Origin: Escherichia coli
Lineage (GTDB): Bacteria; Pseudomonadota; Gammaproteobacteria; Enterobacterales; Enterobacteriaceae
Reading direction: 5' to 3' (one strand)
Assembly: GCF_002854065.1 (NCBI RefSeq)
Contig: NZ_CP024147.1
DNA: 64,000 nt
Shown here: one piece after another, positions 27,132 to 28,149 of the stretch
How the letters are laid out: each line of letters starts with the position of its first letter
Position numbering within the stretch: position 1 is the first letter of the stretch
The notes under the pieces: generated by a model
Told to the model about the DNA's origin: nothing
What the model saw: only the letters and a program-made list of their open reading frames with translations
The model's database searches: none
Program-made: the position numbers and the translations under genes

Positions 27132-27674
27132 ATGAAGAAAAAAACGATATTTCAGTGCGTTATCTTGTTCTTTAGCATTCTTAACATCCATGTCGGGATG
27201 GCTGGGCCTGAACAAGTTAGTATGCATATTTATGAGAATGTGGTCGATCAGGGCTGTGATGTCGCCACCAAAAGTGCATTACAAAATATTCATATTGGCG
27301 ATTTTAATATCAGTGATTTTCAGGCCGCGAATACCGTAAGCACTGCTGCTGATTTGAATATCGATATCACCGGTTGTGCCGCTAGTATTACTGGCGCGGA
27401 CGTCCTTTTTAGCGGCGAGGCTGACACCCTTGCACCGACACTGCTCAAACTAACTGACACAGGCGGAAGCGGTGGTATGGCAACAGGGATTGCCGTGCAA
27501 ATTCTTGATGCGCAAAGTCAGCAAGAAATCCCGCTCAATCAGGTCCAGCCTCTTACGCCCTTAAAAGCCGGGGATAACACACTCAAATATCAACTTCGTT
27601 ATAAGTCCACAAAGGCGGGAGCAACGGGCGGTAATGCGACGGCGGTTCTCTATTTTGATCTGGTTTACCAGTGA
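27132..27674 (+). CDS. ycbU: Fimbrial-like protein YcbU, 180 aa
   Basis: Signal peptide, fimbrial subunit-like with Cys pair. Confidence 0.8.
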   Translation: MKKKTIFQCVILFFSILNIHVGMAGPEQVSMHIYENVVDQGCDVATKSALQNIHIGDFNISDFQAANTVSTAADLNIDITGCAASITGADVLFSGEADTLAPTLLKLTDTGGSGGMATGIAVQILDAQSQQEIPLNQVQPLTPLKAGDNTLKYQLRYKSTKAGATGGNATAVLYFDLVYQ

Positions 27675-27681
27675 AGGAGTG

Positions 27682-28149
27682 ATGTTGAAACGGATAATCT
27701 GGATTCTGTTCTTACTGGGATTAACGGGGGGCTGTGAGCTATTTGCCCATGATGGCACGGTCAACATTAGCGGATCGTTTCGCCATAATACATGCGTGCT
27801 GGCACAGGATAGCAAGCAAATCAATGTGCAGTTAGGCGATGTCTCGCTGACACGTTTTTCTCATGGGAATTATGGCCCGGAGAAATCTTTCATCATTAAT
27901 TTGCAGGATTGCGGAACAGATGTCAGCACGGTTGACGTCACCTTTTCAGGAACCCCCGACGGAGTGCAGAGCGAAATGTTGTCCATTGAAAGTGGTACGG
28001 ATGCAGCCAGCGGGCTGGCAATTGCGATTCTGGATGATGCGAAGATATTGATTCCGCTTAACCAGGCGAGTAAAGACTACAGCCTACATAGCGGTAAGGT
28101 GCCATTAACTTTTTATGCGCAATTGCGACCTGTCAATAGCGATGTGTAG
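27682..28149 (+). CDS. ycbV: Fimbrial-like protein YcbV; alternative upstream ATG at 27634
   Basis: GAAGGAG ribosome-binding site 5-6 nt before ATG 27682; product starts with signal-peptide-like MLKRIIWILFLLGLTGG. Confidence 0.7.
   Translation: MLKRIIWILFLLGLTGGCELFAHDGTVNISGSFRHNTCVLAQDSKQINVQLGDVSLTRFSHGNYGPEKSFIINLQDCGTDVSTVDVTFSGTPDGVQSEMLSIESGTDAASGLAIAILDDAKILIPLNQASKDYSLHSGKVPLTFYAQLRPVNSDV

Follow-up and report, generated by a model that had tools for sequence, protein, structure and literature searches.

The 64,000-nucleotide (nt) stretch of Escherichia coli contig NZ_CP024147.1 (assembly GCF_002854065.1) analysed here, hereafter the window, has the gene order ssuE / elfA-elfD-elfC-elfG-ycbU-ycbV-ycbF / pyrD-zapC-ycbX according to its open reading frame (ORF) list and annotation, and the subject of this report is where translation of ycbV starts. 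In the elfADCG-ycbUVF chaperone-usher fimbrial operon ycbV stands sixth, and its product is a FimF-like minor pilin precursor. The operon encodes an usher and a PapD-like chaperone; elfD, elfC, elfG, ycbU, ycbV and ycbF are all annotated, and ycbF contains PapD_N and PapD_C domains. The fimbrial subunit gene ycbU occupies 27132-27674 on the forward strand and ends with TGA at 27672-27674, as indicated by the ORF list, by the Prokaryotic Genome Annotation Pipeline (PGAP) and MG1655 annotations and by a match to PF00419 (Fimbrial). It is followed on the same strand by ycbV (27682-28149), which in this strain has 155 codons and an amber stop. The YcbV encoded by the window matches PF00419 with 54.2 bits over profile positions 2-130 of 151 only, compared with 73.3 bits for K-12 YcbV and a cut-off of 25.6. 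The K-12 MG1655 ycbV is the same gene in the same operon position, with a junction identical across 27590-27714. The window protein differs from it in having G16 for W16 and H34 for R34, and in an amber codon in place of Gln156, which leaves 155 residues and removes the C-terminal strand.

The ycbV frame is +1 relative to ycbU and contains no stop over the 62 codons preceding that of the first mature residue, so the presence of an upstream in-frame ATG is not surprising in itself. Start-capable codons in this frame are ATG 27634, TTG 27655, GTG 27679, ATG 27682 and TTG 27685. The original prediction placed the first ATG (27634-27636, forward strand) over the ycbU 3' end and a GAAGGAG motif ahead of the annotated start (ATG 27682-27684), and both features are present: ATG 27634 shares the ycbV frame at a point 41 nt inside ycbU, and the Shine-Dalgarno (SD) sequence lies at 27673-27679, with its AAGGAG core at 27674-27679, overlapping the ycbU stop codon. 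The predicted duplex of this SD with the 3' end of 16S rRNA has an energy of -8.3 kcal/mol, which is equalled or exceeded at only 1.8% of the 2011 ATGs on both strands of the window. Three points were missing from that prediction: only 2 nt separate the SD from ATG 27682, this codon is flanked by in-frame GTG 27679 and TTG 27685 (27685-27687), and ATG 27634 has a G-rich SD-like stretch of its own (AAAGGCGGGAG, -7.1 to -7.6 kcal/mol), but this is 12-14 nt distant. The arrangement of ycbU and ycbV resembles the TGAGG-pattern systems, in which an SD lies over the upstream stop codon of close co-directional genes (PMC2784483); here the gap between the genes is 7 nt and the TGA forms the 5' edge of the SD (TGAAGGAG). 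RNA from 27625 to 27724 was predicted to fold more weakly than shuffled sequences (z = +1.22), with no occluding hairpin, and searches near the junction for an internal promoter or terminator gave nothing above shuffle expectation.

The junction was compared with nine related loci, comprising eight orthologues and one 39%-identical relative from another fimbrial operon (L017). Six orthologues have the full operon context (L005, L006, L008, L009, L015 and L018), while L010 duplicates L009 and L016 is a short contig. Codon changes were counted over the 15 ycbU codons before its stop, between the window and, one by one, the five orthologues in which the +1 frame arrangement is preserved. Read in the ycbU frame, these codons show 28 synonymous and 4 non-synonymous changes, and read in the ycbV frame they show 1 synonymous and 31 non-synonymous changes. 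With L008 added, the six loci show 44 nucleotide differences, of which 39 are at third codon positions of ycbU. Judged by these changes, the 16-residue extension that ATG 27634 would add is free of protein-level selection.

The same comparison accounts for the origin of the upstream ATG. It spans the AAT-GCG junction of an Asn-Ala pair inside the conserved C-terminal motif of ycbU (GGNATAVLYFDLVYQ), and it exists because ycbU encodes this pair as AAT-GCG; it is a by-product of ycbU coding and not a conserved start. In L006, where YcbV is 74% identical and the operon is the same, the pair is encoded by AAC-GCG, a change which is synonymous in ycbU and turns the ATG into ACG. In L008, ycbU and ycbV share one frame with a TAA between them, which rules out any extension. 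In-frame stops occur in L016 and L017, at 24 and 36 codons, respectively, before the codon for the mature His. An SD overlapping or abutting the upstream stop can be identified in L005, L006, L008, L009, L015 and L017, and not in L016 or L018.

ATG 27682 was also predicted to open a hydrophobic N-terminus resembling a signal peptide, which agrees with the translation, MLKRIIWILFLLGLTGGCELFA followed by HDG. The 22-residue signal peptide region (27682-27747, forward strand) is delineated by sequence features: an n-region, MLKR, with a charge of +2, a 14-residue uncharged run with the core IIWILFLLGL, and a predicted cleavage site after LFA, with L at -3 and A at -1 before His23. The short form thus has a predicted Sec signal peptide whose signal peptidase I site immediately precedes the donor-strand segment. 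None of 13 relatives departs from A22 or H23, and at every locus a start codon is found 17-23 residues ahead of the invariant Ala-His, which is followed by DGTVNISG. The long form would have an n-region of 20 residues that includes a Glu and a second short hydrophobic run, FSILIWF.

FimF is the best solved-structure relative of YcbV (4j3o_F, 6e14_F, 2jmr_A; NF052362), from the mature N-terminus to the C-terminal strand. In both proteins a Cys comes after the donor-strand segment, and the C-terminus carries an ...NA(S/T)ATF.L.Y motif. They differ in that YcbV belongs to the elf/ycb operon and not to fim, and its role in the fibre is putative. K-12 YcbV scores 114.3 bits against the FimF equivalog NF052362, below the cut-off of 200, and is accordingly described as FimF-like and not as FimF. 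YcbV D24 aligns with mature FimF residue 2 in PDB 4j3o_F (E = 1e-19 to 4e-20 across FimF structures), A22 aligns with residue 2 of the 6e14_F chain, which has one extra N-terminal residue, and by extension H23 would lie opposite mature FimF residue 1. From these alignments, the predicted cleavage point coincides with the FimF mature N-terminus. The full-length NCBIfam precursor profiles also begin at the N-terminus of the short form, LpfA (2-174 of 174) aligning with YcbV residues 3-171 and FimF (7-175 of 175) with residues 8-171. When the long form is used as input these matches merely move by 16 residues and the extension stays unaligned.

Existing annotation agrees with a downstream start. 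Curated MG1655 b0943 (NP_415463.2, 171 residues) starts at the equivalent of window 27682, and PGAP places the start at the same position in CUWW06, C600, strain 100416, WCHEC4533 and SCEC020001. A 187-residue long form (MRRRFSILIWFTSEGVMLKR...) is found in protein clusters P0001, P0002, P0004 and P0005, whose combined membership exceeds 3000 sequences. NCBI/UniRef is the source of P0004, with 279 members, and the other three were called automatically on Logan assemblies. The ambiguity of the ycbV start is real in practice, but the reference annotation has already settled on the downstream start. The window ORF from ATG 27634 to the amber codon is 171 codons long, coincidentally the length of the K-12 protein, for which it could be taken.

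The placement of the SD was examined as aligned spacing, which is the distance between the mRNA position opposite the 3'-terminal nucleotide of 16S rRNA and the start codon (PMC9841429). The optimum is about 14, native genes most often show 13-14, and a site is regarded as SD-led when the start codon lies near a spacing of 12-14 from an SD of 4 nt or more (PMC9841429). ATG 27634 lies at 19 and 23 from two weak 4-mers, outside this range, and GTG 27679 lies at 6. ATG 27682 has a spacing of 9, also outside the range, and TTG 27685 has a spacing of 12, inside it, although coupled re-initiation may escape the rule. The strong ribosome-binding site that the original prediction cited for ATG 27682 is thus a less forceful argument than it seems. 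Wherever a relative has a recognisable SD, its called start lies at 12 or 13, as GTG at a spacing of 12 in L006, L008 and L015 and as ATG at a spacing of 13 in L009 and L017. L005 has GTG-TTG at 9 and 12, as in E. coli.

Taken together, translation of ycbV very probably starts at the 27682/27685 cluster immediately after the ycbU stop, and ATG 27634 is non-functional. The expectation that the downstream start is the likelier one is borne out by the unconstrained extension, the lost ATG and blocking stops in relatives, the signal peptide, the FimF alignment and the annotation, and the best evidence for it is comparative rather than the ribosome-binding site. Initiation would occur at the annotated ATG 27682 or the adjoining TTG 27685, and the position of AAGGAG over the ycbU stop, a layout typical of translationally coupled neighbours, suggests coupling to ycbU. 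Either start would give a Sec signal peptide of 21-22 residues, and predicted cleavage after Ala22 would leave a mature protein beginning HDGTVNISGSF, the pilin donor-strand segment. Initiation, coupling and cleavage are here deduced from sequence.

Use of ATG 27634 as the main start would instead produce a 38-residue extended signal peptide (MRRRFSILIWFTSEGV and then MLKR...) through a 41-nt out-of-frame overlap with ycbU, and we consider this very improbable. Its frame is open, ATG is the strongest start codon, there is an SD-like G-rich stretch upstream of it, and gene callers that favour long ORFs choose it, as the four 187-residue clusters show. Set against these points are the lack of selection on the extension, the loss or blockage of the upstream ATG in L006, L008, L016 and L017, the distant spacing of its SD-like matches, the position of the extension outside every full-length family profile, and the long n-region with its acidic residue and second hydrophobic run. 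Several observations nevertheless count against placing the start downstream. In E. coli nothing closes the upstream frame, and its ATG persists in four of the six syntenic orthologue loci in which the ycbU 3' end is kept; the comparisons with orthologues are also few in number and phylogenetically non-independent. Long-ORF-favouring callers yield the 187-residue ycbV in thousands of assemblies and in one NCBI/UniRef entry, and the spacing of ATG 27682 is poor for SD-guided initiation. A 38-residue signal peptide is unusual yet possible, so initiation may occasionally occur at 27634. No initiation-site or N-terminomics record was found, and ycbV, ycbU, ycbF and elfA are absent from the TRAINSPOTTER supplements. 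A different reading of the short form, that YcbV is a lipoprotein cut by signal peptidase II at LTGG|C18 and not by signal peptidase I, is very improbable. Cys18 of the short form, following L-T-G-G, fits the permissive PROSITE-type lipobox pattern. The test applied was whether the signal peptide ends in a conserved [LVI][ASTVI][GAS]C motif. K-12 has W at -2 (LTWGC), allele P0019 replaces the Cys with Ser, and the column lacks a Cys in most orthologues; where one is present the preceding residues form no lipobox. The A|HDG junction does not vary and falls at the N-terminus of mature FimF. The window match (27724-27735) was therefore rejected as a chance one, being unconserved and without a canonical counterpart in the orthologues.

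With ATG 27634 rejected, the choice lies between ATG 27682 and TTG 27685. SD geometry and homology favour 27685, start-codon strength favours 27682, and either may be the start. That TTG 27685, and not the annotated ATG, is the principal start, with the P site of an SD-held ribosome reaching 27685 but not an ATG 2 nt from the SD, is a serious possibility that we rate at somewhat below even. Behind a strong SD, initiation could not be detected at an AUG with a spacing of 10-11 that competed with a start codon two nucleotides further downstream; it took place exclusively at the latter, at a spacing of 12-13, in reporters, in toeprints and in the native hdhA, secF and nagZ contexts (PMC9841429). 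Those systems are out-of-frame AUGUG or GUGUG overlaps, whereas the ycbV competitors (ATG-TTG) share one frame. Spacing also favours TTG 27685, at 12 against 9 and with the orthologue starts all at 12-13, and in the protein alignment Met1 of the orthologues stands opposite Leu2 of E. coli YcbV. UUG is, however, a weak initiator. GUG at short spacing is reported to be of low efficiency (PMC9841429), which also tells against TTG 27685. The first AUG may be used, without normal SD geometry, by ribosomes that re-initiate after terminating 8 nt upstream at the ycbU stop, and a start-capable codon is kept at the 27682 position both by E. coli (ATG) and by the divergent L005 lineage (GTG). A single residue of the cleaved signal peptide separates the two products, and therefore the mature protein would be the same from either codon and selection between them would be weak. 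If TTG 27685 were the principal start, the annotated ATG would be one codon too early and ycbV would rely on a weak UUG and on coupling to ycbU, which would hold this minor pilin to a low stoichiometry.

Within the species, the 65-nt ycbU-ycbV junction is identical in 4011 of the 4059 E. coli genomes that carry it, and the most divergent alleles examined (L012 and L013) have no changes between 27624 and 27709. Within-species variation is therefore uninformative on start usage. A megablast search with window 27100-28950 matched 4072 of 5426 complete E. coli genomes. At least one genome labelled E. coli, CP057500 (L005), has a ycbV allele only 73% identical at the same locus, and a divergent allele class of this kind probably accounts for some of the non-matching genomes. 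The elf/ycb operon is cryptic and silenced by H-NS under laboratory conditions, and SlyA overproduction activates it about 2.7-fold (PMC5797941, citing Korea et al. 2010). Among publications matching "ycbV" in full text, no title or abstract dealt with translation start sites.

In this strain ycbV is interrupted by a premature amber codon (TAG, 28147-28149, forward strand) at the position of the K-12 CAG for Gln156, as identified by comparison with K-12 and relatives. A 41-mer centred on the variant base matched only two, CUWW06 and strain 100416, of 5426 complete E. coli genomes. The amber codon removes QSGKVNASATFVLHYD, which is near-invariant in all relatives, aligns with the C-terminal strand of FimF and corresponds to Pfam positions 131-151. 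The complete C-terminal beta-strand with its penultimate aromatic residue (...ATF.L.Y.) is present in K-12 and all orthologues and is missing from the window allele. The untranslated remnant (28150-28197, forward strand) still encodes the conserved strand (SGKVNASATFVLHYD) and the original stop codon TAA. In chaperone-usher pilins the C-terminal strand is part of an incomplete Ig-like fold and lines the donor-strand groove, and the C-terminus is held by the chaperone. We infer that the truncated YcbV is non-functional because the lost strand belongs to the pilin fold and the donor-strand groove.

The usher gene elfC carries an IS2 element of 1331 bp (22588-23918, forward strand), which is inserted in the same orientation as the operon, gives a TnpB match of 727.6 bits and is flanked by a 5-bp target duplication, CCATC, at 22583-22587 and 23919-23923. 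A frameshift in the window elfC was ruled out, as the gene without IS2 and one copy of the target site is an intact 2601-nt ORF of 866 codons. The fimbrial system is probably non-functional in this strain, because YcbV is without its C-terminal strand and IS2 divides the usher gene. In CUWW06 (L001:3841-3857; compared with window 22588-22604 and 23948 onward) the flanks on either side match the window with 100% identity, and only the first 17 nt of the left end of IS2 are retained, joined to elfC at a CCCCCTGAA microhomology, with 16 nt missing from elfC. This resembles a product of deletion from the window's IS2-bearing allele, or else of its collapse during assembly. In strain 100416 (L011:5130-5140) PGAP flags an elfC frameshift, which reflects a homopolymer change (A8>A7) confined to that assembly, and zapC is flagged with an internal stop; both lesions may be sequencing errors. 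Elsewhere, TW10573 (L014) lacks ycbV-ycbF and has IS1A further downstream interrupting zapC, and in 31B19CPO012 (L019) ycbU is replaced by IS1B. The deletions in these two strains suggest recurrent decay of a cryptic operon.

A parallel ambiguity affects the fimbrial chaperone gene ycbF. From the curated K-12 start the gene occupies 28190-28900 on the forward strand and encodes 236 residues, beginning with an ATG (ATGACTAA) that overlaps the original ycbV stop; PGAP starts it at ATG 28163 instead, giving 245 residues. ATG 28163 is a by-product of an AAT-GCC (Asn-Ala) in the upstream ycbV and is lost in L018 (AAC) and L016 (AGC). All eight syntenic loci checked retain the start in the ATGA overlap, and the PGAP start probably makes ycbF nine codons too long.

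The downstream start of ycbV is already known, being that of the reference annotation, and this is an ordinary annotation point. The additions made here are small and consist of the origin of the spurious ATG, the question of 27682 versus 27685, and the pseudogene state of ycbV in this strain. The practical stake is annotation hygiene, as public collections mix the 171-residue form (NCBI) with the 187-residue form, which dominates the Logan automated calls. For the window strain itself the question of the start codon is largely moot, given the amber codon in ycbV and the IS2 in the usher gene. What can be reused is a diagnostic: where the conserved Asn-Ala of a pilin C-terminal strand is encoded as AAT-GCN, a spurious +1-frame ATG arises just upstream of the next gene. 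This occurs twice in the operon, from ycbU into ycbV and from ycbV into ycbF, and PGAP appears to take the spurious ATG in the case of ycbF.
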